From assembly GCA_049642065.1 (NCBI GenBank), contig JBAROK010000026.1, positions 1,868-65,867 of the forward strand: a stretch of DNA of 64,000 bases. Direction: 5' to 3'. The notes under the pieces are model-generated. The model did no database searches. It saw only the letters and a program-made list of their open reading frames with translations, and was not told the origin of the DNA. This document shows positions 2,597 through 63,163 of the stretch, piece by piece (the first letter of the stretch is position 1; each line of letters opens with the position of its first letter). Both the position numbers and the translations under genes were made by a program. The DNA comes from Candidatus Omnitrophota bacterium. GTDB lineage: Bacteria; Omnitrophota; Gorgyraeia; Tantalellales; Tantalellaceae.

Positions 2597-3096
2597 TGCG
2601 TCTTCTTGACCAAAAATTCCGTAGCAATAAGTTAAAGTATATCGGCCAGGCGCTGCTTGGCGGTTTGGCTGTTGGCATAGCGCTTCAAACCTTTGATGTT
2701 GTCAATAAGCCGGTCATCATAGCTTCTTTTGGAGCCAGTGCGTTCATAGCGTTCACGATGCCAAATCAACCGATATCCCGCCCGAGATGTCTTATTGGCG
2801 GGTATGCGGTAGGATTGGTCGTGGGGGTTCTGATGAACACCCTTACGTTCTTGCCCGCTGAAGCATACATATTACAGAAAGAAATCGAGATCACAGGAGG
2901 AGCAATAGCTGTGGCTTTAGCGATGTTCTTGATGTCTATAACCAATACTGAGCATGCACCTGCTACTGGAGTAGCTTTGGGTCTTGTGATAAACGAATGG
3001 AGTCTTCTTACGCTGGGTCAGATAATGGCTGGAATAGTTGTTATCTCTGCGATACAGAGATTGCTCAGGCCTTGGATGATGGATCTCATCGAGTAG
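2596..3096 (+). CDS. HPP-family integral membrane protein
   Basis: Four hydrophobic helices. SFGASAFIAFTMPNQPISRPR resembles the HPP-family core, with PNQP in place of HPP. Confidence 0.55.
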
Positions 3097-4288: not shown

Positions 4289-4381
4289 ATGGGAAACTTA
4301 TTTATCAAGCACAAAACATGGGTCAGGATAGTGGCAATAGGCGTAGTGTGCCTATTTCTTCTCAATGATTTTGCGTTCGCT
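4289..4381 (+). other. N-terminal signal peptide / membrane anchor of the giant protein (MGNLFIKHKTWVRIVAIGVVCLFLLNDFAFA|VED)
   Basis: A positively charged n-region, a hydrophobic core, and an AFA|V signal-peptidase-I-like site. Confidence 0.55.
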
Positions 4382-7300
4382 GTTGAGGATGTGGCACTGA
4401 GGAAAAATGCGTATACCCTTTCTCCGGTTTCCCGCATAAGGCCGATTATCACAATTGAGGATAATGACGGTGAGCTTACCATAGTCGAGGATGAACAGGA
4501 AAGATCCAGACTGATCGAAGGTTTTCAGGAAGACGCCGGTTTCATATACCTGAACACTCTCATAGCCCAGGTGCTTCAAAAGTTCGGCTCTAGGATAAGC
4601 GCCGAAGGGTTGAAAGAACTTATCTCCAAACATCTTTCCCACGTAGATTTCACTAATTTTAAATGGCAAGAGATTTACAAAGAAGGAGACGTCTTCTGCC
4701 TTCCATATGCTAGAAAAGATGATGGCCGTACACAGATATTAAAATTCTACCTTCCGAAAGACAAAGAAGTACAGTTTCCCCACGAGGTTGCTTTAAAGTT
4801 TGATGACGGTTCAACTGCCATATTAGAAGACCCGATGGCCGAGCTTCCGGAGCATCTTAAGAAAATCCGTGAGACCGCTGCCAGTATCGCAGGGCAAGGA
4901 ATATTGTCTGGGATGGAGCTAGCGGAAAGAGGGATTAAGGGGAGCGCCTCAGCGGACGTAAAGGATCTTTCAAAAGACGGCAGGCTTTCATGCAATATGA
5001 TCTTGGTGGAGAAGTCTGAGAGGGACAGGGAAGCTTTAGACAGAACACTTTATGATAAATACCAGGGAAGTTTTCAGGTAGTTGCCGAAAGAAGAGAAGA
5101 CGTAGAAGACAGAATCTTGCGTTGGCCGCAGAAAGAACTTGAAAGAATTCTTGGAGAAAGAGCTTCTCATAATTTTATCGTAATAATCGATCCGGCAAAA
5201 CTTCATCCTGTCAGCAGAGAAGATGTTAAGAGAGTGCCCCAGGGTGCCTATCGTTCATATATTGAGATGCGTTTCAGTTACGGGATAAGACCTGAAGCTT
5301 TCAAAGCCGTGCTAATACCTAAAGAACTTGTTCCCATTATAGGGAATGTCTTTCCGCCACATGTAAAGATCATTGAAGTAAACGGCACAAGGCAAAAAGA
5401 GTTGGAAGTGCTGAGGCAGGAACCGATGATGGTAGGAGAGCGTCGTATAGGGGAAGAATCTAGAACGCGTATGGTTAACATGGAATTGCCGGACTATGAA
5501 ACTGCCCTTAGCGATTATTTAAGAGGCATGTCTAGAGGAGATAAACTCCTGACCCATATCGTAAGGCTTACTGCTCCGTCTGATGTCGAGCCTGAAAAAT
5601 CCGAAAACGAAAAGAAACATATACAAGGAGATAGTTCTGGGGATGATGGGAATCCTTCAGCTAAAGGTTCGGGTGGCCCCGTAACGTTAATGAGTGTAGC
5701 CTTACCTGCCCTTGCTACAGCATTTTTAAACACAGGCGAAGCGATAGATCCACTGATACCTGTGCTTTTTGGGATTGTTGCATTAGTCGCGATACCTATA
5801 GCGCTTTATCATGCATACAGATTTTGTATCGGGATAATGACAGTGGCCTTAGGGGTCAGAGAAAGAATAGCGACTGAGTTTGTTTTGGGAGGCGGCCTTA
5901 TCGCTGCCGGGATCCATTTGGGGTTCGGTCAAGTTGTACCGTCTTTTACGGAATATATAGCATCACCACTTTTATGTAGTGCCGGGGCGTGCCTCATAAC
6001 TTTTGGTGCGTACGAACTCGTAAAAGGTCTCATCATAAAATGGTCAAAAAAACAGGAAGACACACCGAACTTGGGTTCAGTCAACTCTTATGATCTAGCG
6101 TCTCACGAACTTCTTCGGGAGCATCTTAGGTATGCGGGGCAGTTACAGGCATGGGGACAGGAAGTAGAAGGTACAGACTTTTCGCAATATTATCACGACA
6201 GGCTAACTGAAGCCGGGATAACTCTACCAGATGATCTTAATCTGATCGTAATAAAACATAATCATGGGCCCCAAGGATCGCTAGAACAGAAATTTCTTTA
6301 TTTTGAGCCTATGGCTGAAAAATGGATATTCTCTCATTCTGGAACGCGCAAAGGAACCGGTAAATTCGTATATCTTACTGAGGAATCTTTATATCTTCTT
6401 ACGCATAACGTAAGCAGACATCCTGATTGCAAAAAGTTTCTTGAAGAACTTTTAATGGAAGAATACGAACACGCTACCCTTAAGCTGGAAGGCCGCTGGG
6501 CACAGGATTCACATAAGCTTGGCGATTCGCATCTTAAGGAATATGTGGAAAAAAACTTTAAGCTAAGACAACTCAGGTTAGCGGAACCCGTAGCGACAGC
6601 TATAGCCGATAACTGGACAATATCCGGAAGCATAATAGAACTATTTATTGATTTTCACCTTAAGGAAAAAGTTCCGCTAGATATTGAAGCGAGGTTTCAT
6701 AGAGAAGCAACTGAAGCAACAGACCTGGGGGGAATAGCCCGCATAATGGCTAGCAGCGCCAAGAGTCCGGACCACGCGAGAGAAAGAGTGCTTGAAGATG
6801 TACAAGTGATGGTTAGGTATAACTTGGCACAGGCGCGCAAGACAATAGATTTTATGGACGAAATGGCGGCAAAAGTTTCGCCTGAAATAAGAGAAGGACA
6901 AGAGTTTAAGAATCTCGTTGCTTTCTTTGTGGAGAATTTGAGTGACGCAGAGCTATACAAGGAAATCATAGACGATGAGCACATTCAATATGACGAGATA
7001 AATATAGGTTATCTGGCAAGGGATACGATCAGGTTCCTTAAGTCCCTGAAACAGTTCGAGCACACCGATATTGTTTTTAAGAATGATACGCCGGAGACGA
7101 CCATTTTGGGTGAGCCATATCTTATACGCTGGGAATTTATCGGTGCAGTGTTGAGGGAGGTTGATAATCTGCCAAGAGGAAGCGGCAAGATAGAAATCGG
7201 ATATCGGCAAGATTCATCAAGGATAGGGATCGAATTCATAGCGGAAAACCCGGCAGAACGCGCGAGGTGGATCGAAAGCGTAAAAGATAAATGCGCTGAT

Positions 7301-10300
7301 CTGAACGGTGCTTTTTATCGCGAGCTTAGGAAAGAATATAGAAGGGATGCGGGATCATGTTTTGATGCTTCTTACGTTCTTTCCCGAGTGCTGGCGGAAC
7401 ATCTTGGTCTTCCGATCGATGGTGATTCTCCCGATAGGATAGAGATAGAGGTGGGAGAGTACCCGTCTACGAGGCTTCTTAAGCCTTCTATTCACGCTTG
7501 GGTAATTGTGTACAGAAAAGGGGAGAGAACTCTTCTTATCGACCCGACCAGAGGGCAGTATGACAAGGGACAGTATAACAAAATATTTGTTGGAGAGTAT
7601 GCGAAGGCGATGGAAGAGCTGGAGCTAATAGGTCCGGATGAGCTGAGAGGAAAAGATGACTATAGGGATATAAACGATATCTTATTCAGCCATACGAGCA
7701 AGGAACCCCTGGACCTGATGTCAAGCCGCGTGTTGGAGAATATGGAGCTAGTCAGCATACTCAGAAACAGGTTGGATCTCAGTATAGGAAACGCAAGTCT
7801 TGGTCTGACCGAGCGGTTTGATTTTCTGGTGGGTGCTAATAAAGAGAAAATAATCAAGGAAACTGCTTTTACTGTTGCGGAGATTAAAAGAAGTACAGGC
7901 AAAAATACTAGAATGGGAGTACGCGTGGGCTACAAGGATGAAAGCACGGGTACGCAGTTTGACCTTGTCCTGGATATTGCTTATTACGGGGACGTCGAAA
8001 AAGTCGAAATAGTCATAAAAGTGTCAACCTCAGATATCTCAAAAGTGTTCCTCCTCCCGGAGCCCAATACTGTTGATATGGTCTTTCTTGGCGGAGGTAA
8101 AGCTTCGCTAAAACCAGCAGCGAAAGAGGCACATCCCGTTAGGCGAGGGGGAGAAAAAAACATACGAACTGACGAAGAAGCCAATGAGATCATACCAGGA
8201 ATTTTCAAAGCGCTAGGTATTGAATCGGAAAAACTGGAATGGCGCGAAGAGGATGGGTTGGTAGTAGCCGACATGCCGGTAGAGATGCTTAAAGAGCAGG
8301 AGGTAAAATTAGCGTTTGATCTTCCCGAGAAGGCACCTGTTGCAGGAGAGCTATTGATAGCGTGTCACGGAAGCTCACCGATGTTTTTATGCTTAAGAGG
8401 TAAAAAGCAGCTCGTGAAGATCATCAATTTAATGCCCTATTACGAGGATCTTCCCGAAGAAACCGCATTACGCATTATGGGCAGACTGGACGCTAAATTC
8501 CCAATAATGGAATTCGTGGGACACTCGCCATATTCATATGCGGTATTCAATGAGTGGGGAGGGTTGATCGAAATAACATCCGGATATCCGAACACAAAAA
8601 AATACCGTATTCCGATACATGTTACGCGCATACCCATACTCCCAGGGGTGTACGGAGGATCCCACTCATCGAGCGAGATAAGTGCCCGCGCTACAGTCGA
8701 ATATGCTAAACCAGGCATGAAAGTGCTTGTTGTCGGAACCGGCAAAGGTCTTGAGGCTCGAATAGCGGCGCTGCGGGGTGCTACTGTAGATGCCGTGGAC
8801 ATAAGAGAACTTGCAGTCGCGAACACTAAAATAACCTGTTATCAAGCGGGCGTGTCGGATAAAGTGAACGCATTCTGCAACGATCTTTTTAACGGGCTCG
8901 GGAAATATGATCTTATTATCTTTAACATGCCGCATGCCTCCGATGAACCGCTGGTTCACGATCTAGTTACAAGTAAAGACCGTAATACCAGTGATTTCGG
9001 AGGAGCATTGCTTGACAGGGTAGCCGATGAGATAGCAAAACACATGGCGCTGGGAGGTAAAGCCGTTCTTATCAATAGTGAATCTTTTATTACGGAAAAG
9101 AAACTGAAAGAAAGAACAGGGTTTAGCGTTAGATCGGACTTCTTTGATGTTGCCGGAGGATCAAAAGCGTACATTATAGAGAGGCCCGATTCAGATAGGG
9201 AAAAATCTGCCGGGATTTTACGTCTTCCTTCGCCGCGCGGGCATGTTCCCGATATACAGGGAAACATTGAAAGGGCTAAAAGGAATATGTGCCAGCCTTT
9301 AGAGCAGGACAATTCTACTATAGTTAGTGAAAAAGATATCGACTGGACGGCGATAAACGCGTACATGCGCCAGAAGAAACTGAAGGTATACCCCAAAAAA
9401 GACAGGCCTGTCGTACATGTAGTGGACATACAAGGCGAGAACGGAAAAGACCTTTTCGGGTTTCCGCTTGTACCGGGCCATGAGGAGTTTGAGGGAATTG
9501 TACCGGTCATATCGTACAGGTCCTTAAAGGACGACCGGTTGCACGTGTTCATGACAGCCGGCCTTTATGACGACTATCTTGAAGTATCCCACATGAGAGC
9601 GACTAGAAGCGCGAAAACGCTTCGTATTGTCCGGCTCGCCGAAATACTTGATCACGAGATCTTTGAACATTCCGAGGAAGCTCTTGCTGAGCCCGAAGAA
9701 GAAAGGCACCATCTTGCTGCGCTCCGCGCCGGGCATTTTATCCCGCGTGGCCAGAAAATAAGCGCGTTCCACAAATGGGTCTTGGACAATATGGCGCTTA
9801 CAGAAAACGGACGCGAACATATAATGCTTATGCTTGACGAAGAGAGGCCAGAGCCGGAGAGGTCCAGCCAGCGTAAATACGAAAGGAATTTTTATAATTA
9901 CGCCAAGAGCGTGTTACCAAGGGAAAAATATTCAGGCAAAGTGCAGCGTGCCGCTCATCATCTTTTGAGAGTATACGGGCACGGAGATGTACACGCTTTT
10001 GAAGAATTGTGCGTAAAAGTCGGAGTAGACCCCAAAGCGCTTAGTAAAGCGATCGAGCAAGAGGAGAAAAAACACGTGTTGAACGCCGTTGAAGGGTTTA
10101 AGCCGGATATAGTTATTACGGAGACGAGTGAGACGAATGTGGAGATAGATAACACAAAAGCCATTGTAAGAAAGCTGCTCAAGAACCAATACGCTGATTT
10201 TGTATGGAACGCGCTGATGAAAGCCAAACACGGGCCGGAATGTATGACGGTGCTGTTGGAGGTACTTGCTAAACACGGTAAAGATGTCTTCTGCAGCGAG

Positions 10301-13300
10301 AAGATGGAGCCTGTTATAGAGTATGCGTTCAGGGAACTAAAACGGTACGATAAAGAGAAATACGAGAGAGTAAGCGATAAGGCCGGTACAGTACTTGAGG
10401 TAGTTTCAGATTATATGGATCAGCTGGCGATACTTGCCAGTTATCTTCTTGCCCAGGAAAGGTTGGGAGGGCTTATAGCGGACTTTACGATAATCGACGG
10501 CCAGATATACCAAGAAAAGGTGACCCCTCTTACAGTTTATCTTCAGCAGCTTATTAGCGGAACGGGCCCCTTCGAAGACCTTAAAGATAAATCTTACGAG
10601 AACAAAGTAAGGATAGGGTGGGACGTTCTGGAAAAATATATCGAATGTATTCAAGAGATAGCTAAAAGGGGAGCAGTAATATGTAACGTTAAGTTAACTA
10701 ATTTTGGTATAAGAGAGAACGGTGAAGTGGTTCTTTTTGACCTGGGAAGGTCGTCTTTGGGGTGGCATGACAGAGGAGAGATAAACCAGGAGTTCGCGCT
10801 TACCCTGCTTGGTACGAAAATAGCAATGGATGCCAGGCGACTTGAGAACTTGAATGCCGAAGGTGTTTTTGAAGAAACGGGCATACGTCATGATTTTGGA
10901 GATGATGAGCAAGCCCAAAAACTTCAAACGGAACTAGCGCGGATATGGACAGAACTAATCTCCGCAAGACCCATTGCGGAGGGTGACGAGGAGGCCGTGA
11001 AGATACTGGATGGCAGGGAGTTTGTTGAGAGGGTCAAGACCATTCTCCCAAAAACACCGGAAGAAGCTGAACCCGAATACAGGAGGATAACGTTCATCCC
11101 AAACGAAATAGCGGGGGAAGAGATCTTACAGGTAATAATGAAGGAGATAGATGACAGTAAAACAGAAACAACGTCCTCGCTTCCACAAGGATCCATACAT
11201 GGCGTTTTCACATATCTATGTGAAAATAATGTTATAAATCCTGAAACTAGTTTACCGGGCGATCTGATAGCTAATGGTCTTGACCGCCAGTTTGGAACGA
11301 TAAAGTATGACCTGAGAGCTTTATTTTACCATTTGCATCTTATTGAAAAAGCGGATGTCAAGGAGACCGGCAAGAGCGCCAGATACTACGTACCGGAAAG
11401 GGTAAAGAAGAAAGCCGCCAGGATATTACCTGTTCTTACCCGTTTTGTTGGAGAAGACCGTGTGCCCAAAGTAACACTTCTTGATAAAGTTTACGAAGAA
11501 GAGATAGCCCCCATTCTGCAAGCCCTGCCCCAAACAAGATGCAGACCCAAGCCCATTGAAGGAAAAGCGCCGATAATCCTTATCCTGGGATGGCCCGGAT
11601 CAGGTAAGACTACCCTTGGAAGATCTTTGAGCCAGGAGCTGGGAGTGCCTCATATCTCAATAGGTACATTGATAGCGCAAGAAAGGGAACGCAACCCTGA
11701 TTTTGATCCGGCGCTTCTTAACAGTAACGACTACGTCTATGGTGAGCTTCTTGAGAATGCGCTTGGGGAGTGCGATCTTACAGGAGGTGTTATTATTGAC
11801 AATTCTCCACGTACACCTGATGCGATAAACGCATTAAAAGAAATACTCGAAGCCAAAGGTCTCAAGCTCGGGGCGATAATAGAGCTTACTATTAGCAGGA
11901 GAACTGCCGGTTCACGTATGGTAAAAAGGTCCAGAGAAGAGGGAAGAAACTGGGACAGGAGCAGGAAAGTAAGGCGCAAAAAAATGGACATGTACCGGAA
12001 GATGGCGATGCCGCAGCTTGATCAGTGGCGCAAGAAAGGACTTGTATGTTCGCTGGACGCGGAAGTGGAACCGTGGATCCTGGAAGCCAGAGCGCTTGGA
12101 AGGTTGAATGAGAAAGGCGTGGTTTCGCTGCATCCGCAAAGTGACGAACAGACACATAAGCCACTCACTCCGATTAAAGAAGAGGGCTCCATAGAGTTAG
12201 CTGGCAAGAAATTCCGTTTAGCGACTATAGCAATAAGTGATACCTATAAATCACTTGAAGTGTTTGATGAAGAGACCGGCAAGCGTGTGGGTTTCTTTTA
12301 CGCTATGGTGGGAGACGAAACTAGTCCTCATTGTGCTGATGTTTGCGGAATAAGGGGAATACACCTCAAGCCCCAATACAGGGGGCTAGGATTATCAGCG
12401 AAGATGATGGAAATATTTTTCCAGAAGTTTAGAGAAGTTAATCTGCTTCTTGATGAGATAATGAACCCCATGCTAATTCACATGGCAAAAGAACATTTTG
12501 GGTTTTTGCCTGTTAACCCGGTCCCGGAGAACAGGGTGTACATAAACCTTAAGCAGGGAAGATCCAGCAAGCCAAAGATATGGATACCTGAAGATTTTCT
12601 GAGGCGTTCATACAGTATGGGTCCACCGGAAACTATGCGCAAAGAGTTCGAAGTGCTTCAGGAAGAGCCGGACAATCTAGACGATTTTGAAAAGGTATAT
12701 TTCCGTACTGCGTACAAACGGGTTTACCATCCAGGACTTAGGCTGGAAGGTGTAGATGCTGTTATTACTGATTTTGATGGCGTGGATAGAGACCACAGCA
12801 TGGATGTCGTGAGCGAAGAAACCATTGCGGCAAAGAGAGGACTATCAAGAAGAGGTGTTCATAACATAACGATTACAGGACTCGAACAGGGCAAGCTTTT
12901 CAGGCGTTTCGGCGGGGCAAAAAGAGCCGGGAAGATAAGTACCCGAGATGATTATATCGCTCTTAGCTGTTCCGGGGCTGTTGCTAACCAGGTAACAAAA
13001 GATGGCCAGATAAAACCGCTTGCAGGGTTTAAGGGTGTTTCGTTGGGAGACAGAAAGACAAAACAGGATATTGCAAGGATAGCTAGAAAGGCTTTACTTA
13101 TAGCTTGCCGAGAAGCGGGCATACCACAGGAAGCTGCCGATAATGTCGAAGAATCGATCAGGGAAGAGCAGGTATCTCTTATTGCGAGGGGCGATGAAAG
13201 AATTAGTGCGATACGTTACAGAGTAGCGGAGATTATCCGTAAAGAGCTAAAAAAACAAGGCTTTCCAAAGAATATTGAAGTTTCAGCTTCATTCGTGGCA

Positions 13301-14776
13301 GTGGACATTACCAGTACGTCCAAGGGCAAGGCCGCGATCCAGATGATTAAGCTTTTGAAGCTTACGAAAGTAGTACTAATAGGTGATTCCGTTGGTACTG
13401 AAGAGAAGCCCGGCAATGATAGGAGCTTACTTGTTTTGACTAAAAAAGATATCCGGGCCGCCGGGATAGACTGGGAAGTTGAGCTCATACCTGTTTATGT
13501 AGGACGAGAGGAGAATTATACTCTTCCGGAGAACGTTATTATCTCTCCTCAGGGCGAAAGAGAAATCGATCCTGCACTCAACCTGTACAACGCTGTTATA
13601 AGGGCACAGGACGAGGTAGCGCTACGCGAACTAGCAAAAGAAAAGACCATGAGAGTATGGGGATCGCTTGATAAGAAGAGATTGACCAAATGGTTACAGG
13701 AATGGAAGAAGATATATAAGATCCAAGGTAAGATAGATATAAAACGCCTTTTCAAGGACAGGGTCGGCAGGACACTGTCTTTCAGTATCGGTGAGCACAA
13801 TTGTACGGTTACGTTCGATGTAACAAAAAGCATGAATACCGGCAAAGTGCGGCTGACGATAATGGGCATGCATCTTGACGGAAAACTCAGGGAAAAGCGG
13901 CTTATGTCCATGTTGACCCTGTATCTTATTCAGCCTTATAAGTGCGATGAAGTTTATCACGACAGGATGAACGAGAAATTCGGAGAAAAATTCTTCAAAG
14001 GCTTGAAAAAGCTTGGTATTTACAGCGATATTACATATTCTGAAAAACAGAAAGGTAAATACAGGAACGGGCTGGGGATAATAGATAAAAAGCGCGTCAA
14101 AGAAATCACACATAACACAGAAGCTCTTAAGAAGTTTATCTCAAAAGACGAGGATAGCCGAGGCAAGGAAGGTTTATCTAATGAGGTAAAGGGCAGTCAG
14201 GAGGCAGCTGGCAGATTCGTTGACGAGATAATTATAAGAGCTTTTGAAGCGCAAAAAGAAGGGCAGGATATTATTATTGGTGTAGATACCAGCTGGATAC
14301 CTGATATGCAGGGAGTGCAGCTAGTGTTAAATGAACTATCCCGCATTTCAAGACGTAAAGGGTTTAAGAATATCCATTTTATAAGAGGCAGGGGAGCCGA
14401 ACTGGCGGAGCTTATTTCAAAAAGAGTAGAGAAGACAGGAACCGCACTTTCAAACGTTATAGTGCTTGCTGAAGAACATGTTTTGCAGGCGGATCAGTTT
14501 AATGGTCTGAGAAGTACTGAAGATGAAGAAAAAGCTTTTCTGGTGGGGGTTGATCCAAAGCATCTTACCGACAAAAGTTATACTAGAATACTTGAGATGC
14601 TGACCTTGGCGGTTAAGCTCGCTTTCAGCGAGCAGGAAAAAGCTGAAATTTTTGGAGTATCGGCTACCCGTATTGGTCCAAGAACGTGGATATTTATTCC
14701 CGAGGCGTGTCCGATGGACTTTGAGGAAAGAAAAGCTATTTATAAAGCCCAGATGCAGGCGCTAATCGCAGCCTAA
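4289..14776 (+). CDS. giant multidomain membrane-anchored protein (3,495 aa); motifs are detailed in the sub-features
   Basis: Single uninterrupted frame of 10,488 nt, with a promoter upstream and a hairpin terminator downstream. Multiple independent catalytic motifs occur in the same frame. All ORF-track antisense ORFs across this span are short. Confidence 0.85.
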   Translation: MGNLFIKHKTWVRIVAIGVVCLFLLNDFAFAVEDVALRKNAYTLSPVSRIRPIITIEDNDGELTIVEDEQERSRLIEGFQEDAGFIYLNTLIAQVLQKFGSRISAEGLKELISKHLSHVDFTNFKWQEIYKEGDVFCLPYARKDDGRTQILKFYLPKDKEVQFPHEVALKFDDGSTAILEDPMAELPEHLKKIRETAASIAGQGILSGMELAERGIKGSASADVKDLSKDGRLSCNMILVEKSERDREALDRTLYDKYQGSFQVVAERREDVEDRILRWPQKELERILGERASHNFIVIIDPAKLHPVSREDVKRVPQGAYRSYIEMRFSYGIRPEAFKAVLIPKELVPIIGNVFPPHVKIIEVNGTRQKELEVLRQEPMMVGERRIGEESRTRMVNMELPDYETALSDYLRGMSRGDKLLTHIVRLTAPSDVEPEKSENEKKHIQGDSSGDDGNPSAKGSGGPVTLMSVALPALATAFLNTGEAIDPLIPVLFGIVALVAIPIALYHAYRFCIGIMTVALGVRERIATEFVLGGGLIAAGIHLGFGQVVPSFTEYIASPLLCSAGACLITFGAYELVKGLIIKWSKKQEDTPNLGSVNSYDLASHELLREHLRYAGQLQAWGQEVEGTDFSQYYHDRLTEAGITLPDDLNLIVIKHNHGPQGSLEQKFLYFEPMAEKWIFSHSGTRKGTGKFVYLTEESLYLLTHNVSRHPDCKKFLEELLMEEYEHATLKLEGRWAQDSHKLGDSHLKEYVEKNFKLRQLRLAEPVATAIADNWTISGSIIELFIDFHLKEKVPLDIEARFHREATEATDLGGIARIMASSAKSPDHARERVLEDVQVMVRYNLAQARKTIDFMDEMAAKVSPEIREGQEFKNLVAFFVENLSDAELYKEIIDDEHIQYDEINIGYLARDTIRFLKSLKQFEHTDIVFKNDTPETTILGEPYLIRWEFIGAVLREVDNLPRGSGKIEIGYRQDSSRIGIEFIAENPAERARWIESVKDKCADLNGAFYRELRKEYRRDAGSCFDASYVLSRVLAEHLGLPIDGDSPDRIEIEVGEYPSTRLLKPSIHAWVIVYRKGERTLLIDPTRGQYDKGQYNKIFVGEYAKAMEELELIGPDELRGKDDYRDINDILFSHTSKEPLDLMSSRVLENMELVSILRNRLDLSIGNASLGLTERFDFLVGANKEKIIKETAFTVAEIKRSTGKNTRMGVRVGYKDESTGTQFDLVLDIAYYGDVEKVEIVIKVSTSDISKVFLLPEPNTVDMVFLGGGKASLKPAAKEAHPVRRGGEKNIRTDEEANEIIPGIFKALGIESEKLEWREEDGLVVADMPVEMLKEQEVKLAFDLPEKAPVAGELLIACHGSSPMFLCLRGKKQLVKIINLMPYYEDLPEETALRIMGRLDAKFPIMEFVGHSPYSYAVFNEWGGLIEITSGYPNTKKYRIPIHVTRIPILPGVYGGSHSSSEISARATVEYAKPGMKVLVVGTGKGLEARIAALRGATVDAVDIRELAVANTKITCYQAGVSDKVNAFCNDLFNGLGKYDLIIFNMPHASDEPLVHDLVTSKDRNTSDFGGALLDRVADEIAKHMALGGKAVLINSESFITEKKLKERTGFSVRSDFFDVAGGSKAYIIERPDSDREKSAGILRLPSPRGHVPDIQGNIERAKRNMCQPLEQDNSTIVSEKDIDWTAINAYMRQKKLKVYPKKDRPVVHVVDIQGENGKDLFGFPLVPGHEEFEGIVPVISYRSLKDDRLHVFMTAGLYDDYLEVSHMRATRSAKTLRIVRLAEILDHEIFEHSEEALAEPEEERHHLAALRAGHFIPRGQKISAFHKWVLDNMALTENGREHIMLMLDEERPEPERSSQRKYERNFYNYAKSVLPREKYSGKVQRAAHHLLRVYGHGDVHAFEELCVKVGVDPKALSKAIEQEEKKHVLNAVEGFKPDIVITETSETNVEIDNTKAIVRKLLKNQYADFVWNALMKAKHGPECMTVLLEVLAKHGKDVFCSEKMEPVIEYAFRELKRYDKEKYERVSDKAGTVLEVVSDYMDQLAILASYLLAQERLGGLIADFTIIDGQIYQEKVTPLTVYLQQLISGTGPFEDLKDKSYENKVRIGWDVLEKYIECIQEIAKRGAVICNVKLTNFGIRENGEVVLFDLGRSSLGWHDRGEINQEFALTLLGTKIAMDARRLENLNAEGVFEETGIRHDFGDDEQAQKLQTELARIWTELISARPIAEGDEEAVKILDGREFVERVKTILPKTPEEAEPEYRRITFIPNEIAGEEILQVIMKEIDDSKTETTSSLPQGSIHGVFTYLCENNVINPETSLPGDLIANGLDRQFGTIKYDLRALFYHLHLIEKADVKETGKSARYYVPERVKKKAARILPVLTRFVGEDRVPKVTLLDKVYEEEIAPILQALPQTRCRPKPIEGKAPIILILGWPGSGKTTLGRSLSQELGVPHISIGTLIAQERERNPDFDPALLNSNDYVYGELLENALGECDLTGGVIIDNSPRTPDAINALKEILEAKGLKLGAIIELTISRRTAGSRMVKRSREEGRNWDRSRKVRRKKMDMYRKMAMPQLDQWRKKGLVCSLDAEVEPWILEARALGRLNEKGVVSLHPQSDEQTHKPLTPIKEEGSIELAGKKFRLATIAISDTYKSLEVFDEETGKRVGFFYAMVGDETSPHCADVCGIRGIHLKPQYRGLGLSAKMMEIFFQKFREVNLLLDEIMNPMLIHMAKEHFGFLPVNPVPENRVYINLKQGRSSKPKIWIPEDFLRRSYSMGPPETMRKEFEVLQEEPDNLDDFEKVYFRTAYKRVYHPGLRLEGVDAVITDFDGVDRDHSMDVVSEETIAAKRGLSRRGVHNITITGLEQGKLFRRFGGAKRAGKISTRDDYIALSCSGAVANQVTKDGQIKPLAGFKGVSLGDRKTKQDIARIARKALLIACREAGIPQEAADNVEESIREEQVSLIARGDERISAIRYRVAEIIRKELKKQGFPKNIEVSASFVAVDITSTSKGKAAIQMIKLLKLTKVVLIGDSVGTEEKPGNDRSLLVLTKKDIRAAGIDWEVELIPVYVGREENYTLPENVIISPQGEREIDPALNLYNAVIRAQDEVALRELAKEKTMRVWGSLDKKRLTKWLQEWKKIYKIQGKIDIKRLFKDRVGRTLSFSIGEHNCTVTFDVTKSMNTGKVRLTIMGMHLDGKLREKRLMSMLTLYLIQPYKCDEVYHDRMNEKFGEKFFKGLKKLGIYSDITYSEKQKGKYRNGLGIIDKKRVKEITHNTEALKKFISKDEDSRGKEGLSNEVKGSQEAAGRFVDEIIIRAFEAQKEGQDIIIGVDTSWIPDMQGVQLVLNELSRISRRKGFKNIHFIRGRGAELAELISKRVEKTGTALSNVIVLAEEHVLQADQFNGLRSTEDEEKAFLVGVDPKHLTDKSYTRILEMLTLAVKLAFSEQEKAEIFGVSATRIGPRTWIFIPEACPMDFEERKAIYKAQMQALIAA
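5675..6050 (+). other. internal block of 4-5 predicted transmembrane helices (aa ~463-587) in the giant protein
   Basis: Consecutive hydrophobic stretches: LMSVALPALATAFL, LIPVLFGIVALVAIPIALY, FVLGGGLIAAGIHLGFG, IASPLLCSAGACLITFGAY. Confidence 0.6.
7300..7600 (+). other. transglutaminase-like cysteine-protease core (Cys1024-His1069-Asp1085) in the giant protein
   Basis: GSCFDASYVLSRVLAEHLGLP (Cys codon 7358-7360), SIHAWVIVY (His codon 7493-7495) and LLIDPTRG (Asp codon 7541-7543). This matches the C...HAW...DPT pattern of the transglutaminase-like superfamily. Confidence 0.6.
8700..9120 (+). other. class I SAM-dependent methyltransferase-like domain with an N-M-P-H motif IV (amino-group MTase type) in the giant protein
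   Basis: Motif I VLVVGTGKG at 8723-8749; acidic beta-2 end AVDI; motif IV DLIIFNMPH with NMPH at 8924-8935, where N6-adenine and protein Gln/Lys methyltransferases have (D/N)PP(Y/F). Confidence 0.55.
10660..10760 (+). other. protein-kinase-like catalytic-loop/DFG-like signature (possibly degenerate) in the giant protein
   Basis: VICNVKLTNFG aligns to HRDLKPxN with Asn in the Asp position. It is followed 10 aa later by VVLFDLGRS (DLG 10739-10747). Confidence 0.35.
11560..11960 (+). other. adenylate-kinase-like (NMP kinase) P-loop domain in the giant protein
   Basis: Walker A ILILGWPGSGKTT (11588-11614); GVIIDNSPRTPDAINAL resembles the adenylate kinase GFLLDGFPRT segment; ISRRTAGSRMVKR resembles the LID arginines. 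Confidence 0.6.
12200..12520 (+). other. GNAT-type N-acetyltransferase-like domain in the giant protein
   Basis: VGFFYAMVGDE...VCGIRGIHLKPQYRGLGLSAKMMEIF matches GNAT motif A (R/Q-x-x-G-x-G/A). Confidence 0.5.
12746..13470 (+). other. HAD-superfamily phosphatase-like domain (Cof/SPP type) in the giant protein
   Basis: Motif I VITDFDGVD (Asp 12770, Asp 12776), a conserved Lys region SKGKAAIQ, and motif IV VVLIGDSVGTEEKPGND (Asp 13385, Asp 13418). Confidence 0.5.
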
Positions 14777-14845: not shown

Positions 14846-14920
14846 TGGTTGCGGGGGACGGAATCGAACCGCCGACCTTGAGGTTATGAGCCTCACGAGC
14901 TACCCCTGCTCCACCCCGCG
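14846..14920 (-). tRNA. tRNA-Met (anticodon CAT), initiator-like
   Basis: The reverse complement reads CGCGGGGTGGAGCAGGGGTAGCTCGTGAGGCTCATAACCTCAAGGTCGGCGGTTCGATTCCGTCCCCCGCAACCA. It has a cloverleaf, a CAT anticodon, three G-C pairs in the anticodon stem, an unpaired C1 as in fMet tRNAs, and an encoded CCA. Confidence 0.9.
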
Positions 14921-52600: not shown

Positions 52601-53824
52601 ATGATGAGATCTGACGGCGCGAAAGTCTTCCCGGTCCTCTCTTGGTCACTCTATGACCTAGCGAATCAATTTTTTGCCTTAAATGTAGTGTCATTATATT
52701 TCCCTCGTTGGTTAACACTAGAGAAAAACACTCCCGAGATATTTTACAGCCTGACTTTCGGTCTTTCCATGCTGTTTGTAGCTATCTGCGCGCCTTTTCT
52801 GGGTACTATGTCTGACAGAAAAGGTAAACACAAGATATTTCTTATTATTCTTACCGTTATTTCCGTAATATTTACCGCGGCTCTTGGTATATCTAATAAT
52901 GTATTTATAGCGCTAGTATTTTTTGCGATAGCTAATTTCGGGTGCCAGGAAGCCATTATCTTTTATAACGCTTTGATGGTGGATATAGCGCCTCGCGGGA
53001 AAATAGGATTAGTTTCCGGGTTAGGGAGGATGTTCGGGTACACCGGTGCGATAGTAGCTCTAATGGTCACCAAACCGGTAGTAATGAAAGCGGGGTATCA
53101 GCCGGCTTTTTTGGTGACAGCTGCGCTATTTTTAGTGTTTGCATTACCGTGCATGATCTTTGTAAAAGAAAAGCGACGGGAAGAAAGACCCTCAGCAGGT
53201 ATTTTCAGCGGTGAAAATTTTTCTTCGGTTCTTGAAGACATGAAAAAGATCTGCAGGGTTAAGGGGTTTAAATATTTTTTACTGGCATCGTTTTCCGTGA
53301 TATGTGCGGTAAGCGCTACTATGCTTTTCATGGGAGTTTATGCGAGCAAGGTTTTCGCTCTTGCGGAAAACAAGATCATAGATCTTATCGCTTTTTCGAC
53401 GGTTTTCGCGATCATCGGTAGCATAGTGTCGGGATACATAAGCGATATCGTAGGGCACCGTAAATCGCTTATGGGTGTCTTCCTTCTTTGGGGAGTTTGC
53501 CTTATAGGCGCAGGGGTTCTTAAAGCGCCTTTTCATTGGGCGATTGGAGCTCTTATAGGATTATGCTTAGGAGCTACTTGGGTCATTCTGCGGGCTGTGG
53601 TCGTACGGCTTATCCCGCCGGAAAATATAGGAAAAGCTTTCGCTCTTTTTAACCTGGTTGGTTATTCTGCAGGAATCGTAGGGCCAATGTTCTGGGGTTT
53701 GAACATATTGTATCTCTCAAGATTAGGAGCGACAGGGTACAGGCTGGGTTTGCTTAGTCTGATAATATTTATTGTGATGGGTATTATTTTTCTCCAGCGG
53801 ATGAGGACAGAGGACCAAAAGTGA
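52601..53824 (+). CDS. MFS transporter (Atg22/UMF1-like)
   Basis: Twelve predicted TM helices and the SWSLYDLANQFF motif characteristic of Atg22-like MFS proteins. Confidence 0.7.
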   Translation: MMRSDGAKVFPVLSWSLYDLANQFFALNVVSLYFPRWLTLEKNTPEIFYSLTFGLSMLFVAICAPFLGTMSDRKGKHKIFLIILTVISVIFTAALGISNNVFIALVFFAIANFGCQEAIIFYNALMVDIAPRGKIGLVSGLGRMFGYTGAIVALMVTKPVVMKAGYQPAFLVTAALFLVFALPCMIFVKEKRREERPSAGIFSGENFSSVLEDMKKICRVKGFKYFLLASFSVICAVSATMLFMGVYASKVFALAENKIIDLIAFSTVFAIIGSIVSGYISDIVGHRKSLMGVFLLWGVCLIGAGVLKAPFHWAIGALIGLCLGATWVILRAVVVRLIPPENIGKAFALFNLVGYSAGIVGPMFWGLNILYLSRLGATGYRLGLLSLIIFIVMGIIFLQRMRTEDQK

Positions 53825-56529
53825 CAAAAAGTCTTAGCGAAAGATTCAAGCAGACGGTACAGGAATTTCCTGATGATATTGCTATAAGGTATAAAGGCAA
53901 AGGCGGCTGGACTGATATTTCATATAGCGAACTCGGAAGAAATGTTAGATCGCTTTCAGCTTTTTTGTCTAAAGAAGGTGTTGTAAAGGGAGATAGGGTA
54001 GCTATTCTGGCAGAGAACCGGCCGGAATGGCCGCTTGTGTTTTTTGCTGCGGTTTCTATCGGTGCGGTTTGTGTGCCGCTTAACCCCGTAACCGTACCCG
54101 CTGAAATAGAGAGTTTTGTAAAAGATTCTGGATGTAAAATAGTTTTTACGGACAAAAGCTCAAATTCTCTTACAAGCGAACTTCAATCAAAATGTTCGTC
54201 TGTAAAAAAAGTTATTTCCGTTGATTCGGACATCTTTAAAAAAACGCTTTTACATCCGACCGGAACTGAAAAAACGTGCGAAATCTCAGGCAACGCTTCG
54301 GCATGTATAATGTATACTTCCGGGACCACTGCAGTCCCCAAAGGCGTGGTACTATCGCACTGCAACCTTGTGTCAAACTGTGATTCCCAATACAAATGTG
54401 ACATGGGTACCCGTAAGGACAGCGCAATATCTATACTTCCGTTGCATCATACATATCCCTTGACCGCGACAATGATACTCCCGATCTTGAACGGAGCAAA
54501 AATAATTTATTCTAAAAGCATGCGGCCGGAAGATATATCAGAAGCTATGAGAGAGTCGGGCGGAACCATTTTTATGGCCGTTCCGCAGATATTTTCTTCG
54601 TTTCACCATAGAATAACGGAAGCGGTCAAAAAAATACCGTTCCCTTTTAATCTTCTATTCAATCTTGTTATTACTGGGTTAAGCAAGATAAGACAAAAAA
54701 CTGGGCTTAATCCTGCAAAGTATTTTCTCCATGCTATTCACAGTAAGTTCGGGAAGTCCATGCGTATTTTTGTAAGCGGCGGTGCGAAACTCGATGAGAA
54801 TGTTGCAAGGGATTTGTATAAATTTGGGTTTACCATTTTAGAAGGGTATGGGCTCACGGAGACTTCGCCTGTTTTGACGTTCAACCCTATCAAACGCCCT
54901 AAGATAGGGTCGGTGGGGCTGCCGATACCGGATGTAGAGCTCGAGATAAAGGATATAGATAAAGATGGTATAGGGGAGGTTATAGCACGCGGACCTAATA
55001 TTATGCAGGGTTATTACAAAAGAGAGGACCTAACGGAAGAGGCGATAAAAGATGGGTGGTTTCATACGGGTGATCTCGGGTATCTTGACGAAGATGGGTA
55101 CCTTTTCTTGACGGGCAGGCTCAAAGATGTGATCGTGCTTAGTTCCGGCGTTAATGTATATCCCGAAGAGGTCGAAGAAGCTTATATGCGTGATGCGCCG
55201 GTCAAGGAGATGTGCGTATTTGAAGTCCCGCTTACCGAAGGCAAAAAGGTAATGGAGCTCTGGGCTGTTGTAGTGCCTGATCTTGAATTTTTCAGAAAAT
55301 ACGGTGAAATAAACCTTAGGTCCGTCATTAAGGAAAGGTTTGATAACGTTTCAAGAGGCTTGCCCAGTCACATGAGGCTTATGGGTTTTACAATAACGCT
55401 GGAAGAGTTGCCGCGTACACTGCTCGGTAAAGTAAAAAGGTTTGCTGTTAAAGAAGAATATGCTTCAAAAGCAACCGAAGAGAAAGGTCCTCAAATACCG
55501 AAAGAGATCTCGGAAGAAGATATGGAAATGATGGAAAAGTCTTCAGGTAAGAGGATAATAGACTACCTTAAGAAACAAACGGGAGTAAAAAGGGATATCG
55601 TACCGGCAGACCTTCTGGAACTGGACCTTGGTATAGATTCTCTTGGCAGAGTAGAGCTTCTTTCAGGCCTTGAAAAGGTTTTTGGTATTGAGATAAAAGA
55701 CAAGATTGTTGGTGATGCTTTTACTGTCAGGGATCTGATCGCGGGTCTTGGGCCGCTTTTACCGGAAGGGACAGCTTACCGTGTGCACGATAAAGATGTG
55801 ATGTTCGAGCTAGCACAGTGGAAAGAGACTCTGGAGGAACTTCCGAAGAAAGAAAACCTTGATAGAATAGACTTCTCTCCCGGGTTCTGGACGTGGTTGG
55901 GGTGTTTTATATTCGTCTCTATCCATTATTTGGTTTACAGGGTATTCTATAACCTTAAAGTGGAAGGGAAAGAGAACGTACCGGAAAAAGGTCCGTATAT
56001 ACTTTACGCGAATCATACGAGCTATTTTGACGGGTTTCTAGTTGCTGTATCGTTGCCGCGGTTTCCTAAGTTGGATCTTTTTTTCGTGGGGTTCAGGCCG
56101 TATTTTACCGTGCCGATTATCCGTAACTTGGTTAGGATCGGCAGGATAATACCGCTGGATTTTTCGTCACATCTACTTGAAGCACTGAGGAGCTGTTATT
56201 ATGTTCTGAAAAATGGGAGGAACCTGTGCCTTTTTCCGGAAGGGATACGGACTCTCGATGGTAACGTGGGCAAGTTTAAAAAAGGGTTTGGGATACTTGC
56301 GAAAGAAACAGGAGCTAAACTTGTTCCTGTAGTCCTTGAAGGCACGTATGAAGCCTGGCCCAGGACATCTAAGTTCCCGCGTCGCCATCCTATAAAGGTA
56401 AGTTTCGGAAAAGCTATTACACCAGAAGAAGCGGAACGAGTTGGGTGGGATCTGAATGCTAAAGACGATTACGAAGCGGTTTGCCTTGGCGCAAGAGAGA
56501 CGCTGGTAAAACTCAAGGAGCAAAAATGA
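53821..56529 (+). CDS. tri-domain fusion: AMP-dependent acyl-CoA/ACP synthetase, an ACP-like carrier domain and a PlsC-type lysophospholipid acyltransferase (Aas-like)
   Basis: YTSGTTAVPKGV, GYGLTETS and GWFHTGDLGY are AMP-binding motifs. DLGIDSLGRVEL is a phosphopantetheine-attachment-like DSL. YANHTSYFDG (HX4D) and FPEGIRT are PlsC motifs. GTG start. Confidence 0.75.
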   Translation: MTKSLSERFKQTVQEFPDDIAIRYKGKGGWTDISYSELGRNVRSLSAFLSKEGVVKGDRVAILAENRPEWPLVFFAAVSIGAVCVPLNPVTVPAEIESFVKDSGCKIVFTDKSSNSLTSELQSKCSSVKKVISVDSDIFKKTLLHPTGTEKTCEISGNASACIMYTSGTTAVPKGVVLSHCNLVSNCDSQYKCDMGTRKDSAISILPLHHTYPLTATMILPILNGAKIIYSKSMRPEDISEAMRESGGTIFMAVPQIFSSFHHRITEAVKKIPFPFNLLFNLVITGLSKIRQKTGLNPAKYFLHAIHSKFGKSMRIFVSGGAKLDENVARDLYKFGFTILEGYGLTETSPVLTFNPIKRPKIGSVGLPIPDVELEIKDIDKDGIGEVIARGPNIMQGYYKREDLTEEAIKDGWFHTGDLGYLDEDGYLFLTGRLKDVIVLSSGVNVYPEEVEEAYMRDAPVKEMCVFEVPLTEGKKVMELWAVVVPDLEFFRKYGEINLRSVIKERFDNVSRGLPSHMRLMGFTITLEELPRTLLGKVKRFAVKEEYASKATEEKGPQIPKEISEEDMEMMEKSSGKRIIDYLKKQTGVKRDIVPADLLELDLGIDSLGRVELLSGLEKVFGIEIKDKIVGDAFTVRDLIAGLGPLLPEGTAYRVHDKDVMFELAQWKETLEELPKKENLDRIDFSPGFWTWLGCFIFVSIHYLVYRVFYNLKVEGKENVPEKGPYILYANHTSYFDGFLVAVSLPRFPKLDLFFVGFRPYFTVPIIRNLVRIGRIIPLDFSSHLLEALRSCYYVLKNGRNLCLFPEGIRTLDGNVGKFKKGFGILAKETGAKLVPVVLEGTYEAWPRTSKFPRRHPIKVSFGKAITPEEAERVGWDLNAKDDYEAVCLGARETLVKLKEQK

Positions 56530-61507: not shown

Positions 61508-63163
61508 GTGTTGGTGGCAGAACATCTGCAGGTAGTGTATACTAAAGATTGTCTGTATATTTTGAAACGGAGAGAAATAGTGACTGAAATAAAAACATAC
61601 ACCGATGAGATAGATTTTGAAGGTGCCTATTTTGAGTCCCTGGACCTATTAAGAAGTCTTATGACCGGGGCCGAACAGGGCGCGATCGGGTACGTGGCCT
61701 CTTCGGAAAATATTGATAATTATAAACGTCTTTTCACCAGAGATGCTTTCTGGATCGGTATGGCTGCTATTCTTTCAGAGGACGAAGAACTGATAGGAGC
61801 CTTTAGAAGCAGTCTTGAAGTTTTAATGAACACCCAGAGGGAAGACGGGGCTATACCAAGCAACGTATCCCCCGGCGGAGAAATAAGCTACGGGGTCATA
61901 AACCCGCGGGTGGATCCCACTACTCTTTATGTGATCGGATGCATAGAGTATTGCAGGTGCAGGGGAGGCAAAAAGGACCTGGAATATTTCAAAAGGTCCA
62001 TAGAGAAGGCCATGAAATACCTGGAAAACACCTGGGAAAATAAAATCTGCGGACTTTTATATATTCCACGGGCAGGCAACTGGGCGGACGAATATTTTCA
62101 GAAAGGTTTTGTATTATATGACGAAGTACTGTGGCATATTGCATTGAAAAAAGCGGCGTACGCGCTTAAAGTGCTTGGAAACAAGCGCGCAAGCGAATAT
62201 CTGACAAAATCCGGTACCGTAAAGAATACTATAAGAGACAAGTTCTGGCTGAAGAACAACGAGTCGAAAGAGGACCCGGTGTATCTGACCATGAGAAAAA
62301 AGATCGACATGGATCGCATGGGGTACCTTATGCATTTTTACTATGCGAACCGCCGCACCAAAGCGTGTTTTGCCAAGTCCCACTGCATATTTGATGCTTT
62401 CGGCAATAGCTTGGCGGTATTAGCGGGGGTTGCGTCAAAGAAACAGATAGAGAGCATATTGCGGTTCGTGGACATGATATCGGTTAACTGGTATCCGCTT
62501 GTCCCTGCGCATTACCCGTTTTTCAGAGAAAATACTTTTAAGACAAAAAAGCTTTCCCAATACCGGTTCAAGGAGTTTATAGGCCATTACCATAACGGCG
62601 GACTCTGGCCATGGTATACGGGCGCATATGTTGCGGGGTTAGTAAGAGTGGGGGAAGAGAAAAGGGCCATACGGTTTTTGCACGGTATACTCAGGGCTAA
62701 TGCGTCAGAAAAAAACGGCAAGAAATTTTATGAGTATCATACCGCCCAGAAATCCACTGCGGTGCTTGAAATAGTGCATCCGCACGGGCTGGATCTCTAT
62801 TTCTCAGAAAAGCTATGTACATTTATGACACCGCAGAAATCCAATCTCCGGATAAAATTCAAGAACCGGAAGATCGATGTTACCGACGGTATGTGCGTGC
62901 GAACTTTAAACGCTAAAAAAGGCGATAAGATACAGATCAGCACGGTAGGCCCTGATGCTAAGGATGTGCTGCTTACGATAGCCTTTTTCAAGGACAAGGA
63001 AGGCAACAGGTATTTCAGGAACATAGAGATGAATAAAGTAAAGAGCGAGCCTGACGGCACGCCGAATCTTGGGGTAAGCGCTGCCGCGTATGTTATTGCG
63101 TATAAAGCTGTCGCTGAAAATAAAATACTTTTTGAACAGAAAGAAGAAAAAGATGAAAAATAA
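61508..63163 (+). CDS. six-hairpin (alpha/alpha)6 glycoside hydrolase, GH100 neutral-invertase / GDE_C-like
   Basis: HYHNGGLWPW (the YHNGGxWP signature), FTRDAFW and EDGAIPS motifs. The true start may be the in-frame GTG at 61580, which follows ggagag; 61508 lies inside the upstream terminator. Confidence 0.6.
   Translation: MLVAEHLQVVYTKDCLYILKRREIVTEIKTYTDEIDFEGAYFESLDLLRSLMTGAEQGAIGYVASSENIDNYKRLFTRDAFWIGMAAILSEDEELIGAFRSSLEVLMNTQREDGAIPSNVSPGGEISYGVINPRVDPTTLYVIGCIEYCRCRGGKKDLEYFKRSIEKAMKYLENTWENKICGLLYIPRAGNWADEYFQKGFVLYDEVLWHIALKKAAYALKVLGNKRASEYLTKSGTVKNTIRDKFWLKNNESKEDPVYLTMRKKIDMDRMGYLMHFYYANRRTKACFAKSHCIFDAFGNSLAVLAGVASKKQIESILRFVDMISVNWYPLVPAHYPFFRENTFKTKKLSQYRFKEFIGHYHNGGLWPWYTGAYVAGLVRVGEEKRAIRFLHGILRANASEKNGKKFYEYHTAQKSTAVLEIVHPHGLDLYFSEKLCTFMTPQKSNLRIKFKNRKIDVTDGMCVRTLNAKKGDKIQISTVGPDAKDVLLTIAFFKDKEGNRYFRNIEMNKVKSEPDGTPNLGVSAAAYVIAYKAVAENKILFEQKEEKDEK

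Follow-up and report, generated by a model that had tools for sequence, protein, structure and literature searches.

A putative papain/transglutaminase-like Cys-His-Asp enzyme domain in a long multi-enzyme protein of Omnitrophota

Some of the longest proteins known from bacteria are encoded by Omnitrophota, and the function of these proteins is debated between an attack on prey cell walls, a cytoplasmic multi-enzyme scaffold and a polyprotein. The DNA analysed here (the window, 64,000 nucleotides (nt) of contig JBAROK010000026.1 of a Candidatus Omnitrophota bacterium, assembly GCA_049642065.1) carries at 4289-14776 of the forward strand an open reading frame (ORF) of 10,488 nt, which is in frame +2 and encodes a multi-enzyme long protein of 3495 amino acids (aa). 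A preliminary description of the window had pointed out a Cys-His-Asp motif in this carrier protein, and the locus raises the question of whether the motif marks an enzyme and, if so, of which kind. The analysis indicates that aa ~989-1129 constitute an independent thiol-enzyme domain, probably competent in catalysis, of the papain/transglutaminase-like Cys-His-Asp superfamily (Pfam clan Peptidase_CA), in a sequence family that current profile libraries do not recognise, with a probability of roughly 0.78.

The three peptides quoted for the motif, and the numbering of C1024, H1069 and D1085, are exact in the frame of the 3495-aa ORF. GSCFDASYVLSRVLAEHLGLP spans aa 1022-1042 (nt 7352-7414), SIHAWVIVY aa 1067-1075 (nt 7487-7513) and LIDPTRG aa 1083-1089 (nt 7535-7555). 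The codons of the predicted nucleophile Cys1024, the predicted general base His1069 and the predicted third triad residue Asp1085 lie on the forward strand at 7358-7360, 7493-7495 and 7541-7543. The interval 7300-7600 originally given for the domain is right in location and slightly short in extent: the conserved, confidently folded span covers nt 7253-7675 of the forward strand (aa 989-1129, approximate bounds). Sequences of the form G-x-C, H-x-W and D-P-T, the motifs expected of PF01841, can be read directly. The loose pattern C-x(34-59)-H-x(13-23)-D occurs 14 times in the carrier versus 11.2 ± 4.5 times in shuffles. Thus, the spacing alone is no evidence. The pattern G.C..[ASG]...H.W...[ILV]DP[TSA] occurs once in the carrier and in 0 of 20,000 shuffles, a count that is only indicative since the pattern was picked post hoc. 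The decisive evidence for the motif is its conservation across 25 diverse copies of the domain rather than its spacing.

These copies emerged when 1.84 billion representatives were searched exhaustively by HMMER, aa 600-1400 serving as a single-sequence query. The search gave 37 matches in total, of which two are the orthologue-like P0002 and P0003 and ~23 cover only aa ~994-1126, in proteins 221-7572 aa long. Some proteins hold more than one copy (three in P0019, two in P0013). Comparison of the carriers showed that the sequence flanking the domain is alike only within small orthologous subgroups, and Pfam revealed no constant partner domain among 19 carriers. Recurrence with unrelated flanks therefore identifies the domain as an independently shuffled module of ~140 aa. 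All the carriers with organism names belong to Candidatus Omnitrophota. When genomes were scanned with A2, the four closest copies, four loci were found, two in Omnitrophota metagenome-assembled genomes (MAGs) and two in MAGs labelled 'uncultured Planctomycetia', and a scan of viral contigs gave no locus. No further copy was found in the window by BLAST self-comparison or by a hidden Markov model (HMM) scan of all six frames with the alignment of the 25 copies (A1). A search of the index of a 15-billion protein collection with a fragment and the A1 profile returned no match, although the collection contains the family; as both family and carrier are present in the underlying collection, the empty search does not mean absence.

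Identity to the window copy ranges from 21 to 62% across A1, in which only the columns of C1024 and H1069 are invariant (25/25). D1085, E1052 and Q1090 each occur in 23 copies and Y1104 in 24, and G1045 and R1050 are also retained (22/25 each). Gln1090, five residues after the Asp, belongs to a family motif G-Q-[FY]-D (codon at 7556-7558, forward strand). Glu1052 ends a signature loop and strand L-P-I-[GD]-G-x-S-P-D-R-I-E, consensus LPIGGxSPDRIE (aa 1041-1052, 7409-7444, forward strand), and the Tyr1104 codon lies at 7598-7600 of the same strand. The family consensus reads C-x2-A-S-Y-x-L-A-x2-L-S-x4-L-P-I-G-G-x-S-P-D-R-I-E in its first part and H-x-W-x-A-x-Y ... L-L-I-D-P-x-Y-G-Q-F-D ... G-x-Y in the remainder. 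Upstream of the Cys, A1 has no column with a conservation of at least 80%. Judged from the alignment, retention of exactly the predicted nucleophile and base is not what would be expected of a non-catalytic relic.

A model of the domain was built by AlphaFold2 with A1 as the alignment, model residue n corresponding to protein residue n+988. The model is confident (mean predicted local distance difference test (pLDDT) of 90.6, predicted template modelling score (pTM) of 0.86, all five models at least 87). Two helices span residues 2-28 and 36-51, the latter starting with Cys36 (C1024). The strands comprise residues 62-70, which hold E1052, 79-88, with H1069 at position 81, 91-97, in which D1085 is the last residue, and 112-115, adjoining Y1104; a two-residue turn joins the second strand to the third. 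In the papain/transglutaminase fold, the Cys characteristically sits at a helix N-terminus and the His and Asp on neighbouring antiparallel strands. The model shows the same arrangement, with a helix-N-terminal Cys and the His and Asp on adjacent hairpin strands, and the order Cys, His, Asp is conserved across the homologues in A1. The two-residue turn would pair residue 97 with residue 82 and so place the Asp diagonally beside His81. The assignment of the motif to the transglutaminase-like/papain-fold superfamily in the preliminary description is thus supported, the triad being the most conserved positions of the family and the modelled topology canonical.

Comparison of the model with known structures showed the closest three-dimensional similarity to the SseI catalytic domain (score 8.8, 113 of 141 residues aligned) and the C3 region of Pasteurella multocida toxin (PMT; 7.5). 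Atu2299 (7.4), the transglutaminase-like TglA of S. pyogenes (7.0) and LapG (6.8) follow, and then the arylamine N-acyltransferases (4.5-6.2), Ceg10 (5.8), PeiW (5.5), protein glutaminases (5.0-5.4), RavJ (5.2), C8orf32 (5.1), vasohibins (4.8), SpvD (4.7), Factor XIII, TG2 and TG3 (4.0-4.5) and Cif (4.0). No significant match to the model was found among the viral structures of BFVD.

The sequence profiles present a different picture. Pfam gave no match to aa 1-1450 of the carrier (whole protein at E ≤ 1, three sub-fragments around the motif at E ≤ 10), and the proposed relationship to PF01841 failed at the level of the profile, which matched neither these fragments, nor the whole protein, nor any of the 25 family members. 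NCBIfam did not match the domain region either, and the matches to PDB sequences, whether of the single sequence or of the A1 profile, are at chance level. One of the 25 members touches PF15645 (Tox-PLDMTX) at an E-value of 0.16 and the window copy does not match it, so that the scan of the 25 members gave no membership of this family. PF03412 (Peptidase C39) is absent from all Pfam scans of the carrier, its fragments, the members and the other carriers. A search for homologues that started from the catalytic domain of SseI found near-identical Salmonella SseI only and yielded no useful Tox-PLDMTX profile, and phmmer of SseI against the PDB did not reach PMT. Alignment of A1 with SseI by hhalign (the SseI sequence being from phage Gifsy-2) places H216, D231 and Q236 on H1069, D1085 and Q1090 and pairs NHFAVVGNKEGKDYVFDVSAHQFE with IHAWVIVYRKGERTLLIDPTRGQYD, with DVSAHQFE on DPTRGQYD, at a non-significant probability of ~0.6%. 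The TG2 core, the sequence of which was verified against the PDB, places H335 and D358 on H1069 and D1085, at an equally non-significant 0.5%. These residue equivalences are suggestive of compatibility, not of homology. Identities as a PF01841, Cif-like or C39 domain were considered and rejected.

Several observations weigh against the assignment of the domain to the superfamily as an active enzyme. The sequence profiles lend it no support (Pfam and NCBIfam at E ≤ 10, the profile against the PDB), the hhalign probabilities are low and the Foldseek E-values are weak (0.019). The juxtaposition of the triad in three dimensions is read only from the hairpin register and the helix capping of the model. 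The Asp is absent from two of the 25 copies, one of which also lacks the Gln. The membrane topology of the carrier is ambiguous, and a free catalytic thiol would be less comfortable in a domain located in the periplasm or on the exterior. The neighbours in the PDB are enriched in pathogen effectors by a crystallisation bias, which makes proximity to deamidases a weak guide to chemistry, and early work on SseI itself went no further than 'acyl hydrolase or acyltransferase' (PMC3498931).

An alternative reading, in which the likeness of the motif arose by chance or the domain has a structural or binding role without catalysis, draws on some of the same points: no profile library recognises the domain, the loose C/H/D spacing is as frequent as in shuffles, and two family members have lost the Asp. 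However, the Cys and His are the sole invariant columns over 25 copies with identities down to 21%, at least 92% of the copies retain the Asp and three other residues, and the topology of the confident model is the catalytic one of the superfamily, whereas non-catalytic relics normally lose the nucleophile. This reading is highly improbable, and chance origin of the motif was rejected because the Cys and His are invariant, the Asp is near-invariant and the model of the catalytic topology is confident.

The domain is probably enzymatically active, and a mechanism can be proposed by analogy with the superfamily. His1069, on a β-strand facing the N-terminus of the helix at which Cys1024 is placed, would deprotonate Cys1024, and Asp1085, on the neighbouring strand of the hairpin, would orient His1069. 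The Cys1024 thiolate would then attack an amide carbonyl of a protein substrate to give a thioester, which would be resolved either by water (deamidation or hydrolysis) or by an amine (transamidation). The preferred chemistry, held at somewhat less than even odds, is deamidation or transamidation directed at glutamine in a target protein. It is preferred because SseI and PMT C3 are the nearest structures, the Gln at Asp+5 is common with SseI and no conserved column lies upstream of the Cys. Peptide or isopeptide cleavage, including self-processing of a polyprotein, is a more tentative candidate, and acyl transfer or a cell-wall isopeptidase activity appears improbable. The ranking is soft since the PDB is biased towards pathogen effectors. 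The earlier suggestion that the giant protein modifies target proteins is consistent with the nearest structural neighbours, and a self-processing protease is a live alternative.

With the same fold and triad, the domain may instead be a papain-like protease with a processing role, dividing the long polyprotein into its separate enzyme modules, in cis or in trans, or cleaving other proteins. Self-processing has been proposed for the C39 and S8 modules of Omnitrophota giants by West-Roberts et al. (10.1101/2023.11.21.568195). However, the top two structural neighbours are deamidases rather than peptidases, and no match to Peptidase_C39 or any other peptidase profile was found. The lack of a column conserved at 80% or more upstream of the Cys means that there is no candidate for the oxyanion-hole-like residue of classical papain-type peptidases. 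Up to three copies per protein exceed the need of a single processing activity, which is not decisive, and no recurrent cleavage-site motif was found, none having been sought. Proteolysis is thus possible and rather doubtful. The same fold could also serve non-protein or cell-wall substrates, as an acyl-CoA-dependent N-acyltransferase of the arylamine N-acetyltransferase kind or as a (pseudo)murein isopeptidase of the PeiW or NlpC/P60-like type acting on prey envelopes. The arylamine N-acyltransferases and PeiW score below SseI, PMT, TglA and LapG. The N-acyltransferases are three-domain proteins of ~250-290 aa compared with ~140 aa for the domain, and there is no Pfam match to NAT, NlpC/P60, CHAP or PeiW-type families. 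Such substrates are accordingly considered unlikely.

Outside the domain, a Pfam scan of the whole carrier recognises only an adenylate kinase (ADK) module, a weak small methyltransferase, a weak GNAT and a faint kinase-like stretch. The methyltransferase module (aa 1452-1614, 8642-9130, forward strand) is of the HemK/PrmC-like, S-adenosylmethionine (SAM)-dependent type, with NCBIfam matches to PRK14968 (1.7e-14) and HemK2/MTQ2 (8e-12), both under the curated cut-offs, and a Pfam match to MTS (3e-4, aa 1452-1554). The module also matches, under cut-offs, NCBIfam models of the ribosomal-protein L3 glutamine-methyltransferase type. The presence of a protein-glutamine methyltransferase-like module and a putative glutamine-directed thiol enzyme in one polypeptide could be a coincidence or a functional pairing. 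The adenylate/nucleoside monophosphate kinase module (aa 2430-2592, 11576-12064, forward strand) matches Pfam ADK at 1e-12 (aa 2430-2585), AAA_17 at 2e-13 and adenylate kinases of the PDB at 1e-13. A weak GNAT acetyltransferase-like module follows (aa 2659-2739, 12263-12505, forward strand; Pfam Acetyltransf_1, E 0.011, under the cut-off); a clear GNAT (4e-17) is present in the orthologue P0002 at a different place in the protein. HAD-phosphatase-like motifs, ITDFDGV (motif I) and GDSVGTEEKPGND (motif IV), can be read by eye at ~12650-13500 (aa ~2790-3070), a region for which Pfam reports nothing at E ≤ 1.

Two other parts of the carrier, neither with a Pfam match, recur in long proteins. The module at 6086-6613 (aa 600-775) matches eight long proteins (P0005-7, 9, 10, 14, 16, 24) at 33-41% identity, and its conserved motifs WIFSH.GTR..GKF.YL and E..H...K..G.W..D.H resemble metal ligands; from these motifs it may be a small metallo-hydrolase domain. 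The module at 8141-8473 (aa 1285-1395) has a conserved W[RQ]...[AV]FD[LI] core and is common to P0004, P0025, P0029, P0031 and P0037, proteins of up to 6480 aa. Directly upstream of the Cys-His-Asp domain, at 6900-7250 (aa ~870-988), ILGEPYLIRWEFIGAVLREVDNLPRGSGKIEIGYRQDSSRIGIEFIAEN looks by eye like the N-box/G1 region of GHKL (histidine-kinase-type) ATPases. This stretch has no Pfam support and is conserved only in P0002 and P0003, orthologue-like long proteins with 45% identity to the carrier over ~550-800 aa.

Crude hydropathy scans and direct reading of the translation showed an N-terminal hydrophobic segment at aa 10-33 (4316-4387, forward strand), which would be a signal peptide or a signal anchor and has the site A-F-A|V-E, and a cluster of four to five predicted transmembrane (TM) helices at aa 464-578 (5678-6022, forward strand), upstream of the domain. 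The membrane side of aa 600-3495 is ambiguous because the parity of the helix count is not settled by the scan. Modules dependent on ATP, SAM and acetyl-CoA, together with a catalytic thiol, would be better suited to a cytoplasm, that of the cell itself or of a target cell. Proteins of this kind are described in a 2026 preprint with either signal peptide plus TM or TM-only topologies, between which it does not decide (10.64898/2026.06.07.730766). By its origin, its hydrophobic segments and its methyltransferase, ADK and GNAT matches, the carrier fits the class of long multi-enzyme membrane proteins of Omnitrophota that string together methyltransferase, GNAT, HAD and kinase-type modules ('Module 1' content in the 2026 preprint).

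The carrier is deposited as MGB2601467.1, 'MAG: nucleoside monophosphate kinase [Candidatus Omnitrophota bacterium]', and an exact look-up found the identical protein encoded on contig JBAROM010000079.1 of assembly GCA_049642105.1. Annotation of the window showed the gene embedded among ordinary chromosomal genes. Upstream are genes for a formyltransferase, an enolase and a PfkB kinase. Downstream are a tRNA-Met gene and purine genes (adenylosuccinate lyase, an AIR-synthase-related PurM-type protein, GAR synthetase and AIR carboxylase), followed further on by SHMT, DnaB, BamA, an FtsH-like protease, RtcB and SerRS. The tRNA-Met (CAT) gene lies at 14846-14920 on the reverse strand, 70 nt past the stop codon of the carrier. 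A long gene of low conservation that adjoins a tRNA gene in a purine-biosynthesis region might indicate a site of insertion. Elsewhere in the window, the forward strand at 53821-56529 encodes a 902-aa protein in which an AMP-binding enzyme is fused with an acyl-carrier (PP-binding) domain and a 1-acyl-glycerol-3-phosphate-type acyltransferase, similar to the Aas-type acyl-ACP (acyl carrier protein) synthetase/acyltransferase and with a major facilitator superfamily (MFS) transporter gene directly upstream. A 551-aa ORF at 61508-63163 of the forward strand weakly matches both GH100 (alkaline/neutral invertase) and the HPr phosphorylation-site domain of the phosphotransferase system (PTS), in each case in the C-terminal half (aa 290-492), an unusual combination.

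That a large multidomain protein of a bacterium should contain a thiol-enzyme module is no surprise in itself. However, published Pfam-based analyses leave most of the sequence of Omnitrophota long proteins unannotated, and here an unannotated block becomes a testable enzyme candidate with clear catalytic residues and a confident fold, for which C1024S is the obvious knock-out and the probes and assays of the superfamily exist. A1 would provide a seed alignment for a new family model in the papain/transglutaminase-like clan. The domain could be the missing self-processing protease that dismantles Omnitrophota polyproteins. A further and quite unlikely possibility is a glutamine deamidase or transglutaminase of the SseI/PMT type, displayed or delivered on a membrane-anchored mega-protein and used by ultra-small, host-dependent or predatory Omnitrophota against another prokaryote. 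If true, this would be the first toxin domain of the SseI/PMT class aimed at bacterial or archaeal targets, and it would give a handle on the role of the long proteins.

Among known systems, SseI (SrfH; PDB 4G29; PF15645) is the top structural neighbour, but its sequence identity to the domain is ~12%, without a significant sequence or profile match. The triad of SseI is C178/H216/D231 (PMC3498931) and that of PMT C1165/H1205/D1220 (PMC3202810). The triad spacing of 45/16 in the domain compares with 38/15 in SseI and 40/15 in PMT. PF15645 has been placed in the transglutaminase-like cluster ('cluster III') of papain-like enzymes (PMC10318531). SseI is an effector of Salmonella pathogenicity island 2 (SPI-2), type III-secreted and reported to deamidate eukaryotic Gαi (PMC6107295). 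The carrier here, in contrast, is anchored in the membrane, is 3495 aa long and belongs to an uncultured Omnitrophota bacterium, and the LPIGGxSPDRIE signature sets the new family apart. The C3 region of PMT (PDB 2EBF), a Gln deamidase of Gαq/i, has 11% identity to the domain. PMT has a regulatory disulfide, of which there is no evidence in the Omnitrophota domain, and the Pfam scan detected no PMT-like translocation or targeting domains in the carrier. The eukaryotic Gα targets of SseI and PMT would seem to have no obvious counterpart for an Omnitrophota bacterium. The relatives compared also include the PF01841 transglutaminase core (TG2, factor XIII, bacterial/archaeal TglA and LapG-type proteins). 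Cif (PDB 4FBJ), a protein-modifying effector, shares the superfamily and the type of triad, but the domain shows neither sequence similarity nor close structural similarity to the Cif-like deamidases given as an example in the preliminary description (score 4.0).

A parallel in architecture is provided by the peptidase C39 and other protease modules reported in Omnitrophota giants (West-Roberts et al. 2023; 10.64898/2026.06.07.730766): the present domain is a papain-fold cysteine module set in long, membrane-associated multi-enzyme proteins of Omnitrophota, which also hold methyltransferase, GNAT, HAD and HATPase content. The content reported for these proteins includes methyltransferase, GNAT, HAD, HATPase, NUDIX, C39 and S8 domains (10.1101/2023.11.21.568195; 10.64898/2026.06.07.730766). 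With 3495 aa, the carrier is far under the giants of at least 10-30 thousand aa (kAA) emphasised in both papers. The domain inventories of both are mainly Pfam- and HMM-based, and West-Roberts et al. additionally modelled regions lacking annotation by AlphaFold2 (10.1101/2023.11.21.568195). The words papain, cysteine, deamidase and transglutaminase are absent from both papers, and the domain appears to be unreported in the Omnitrophota long-protein literature that could be searched. The description that fits the domain best is that of a new sequence family in a known superfamily, carried by a known class of long multi-enzyme proteins of Omnitrophota.

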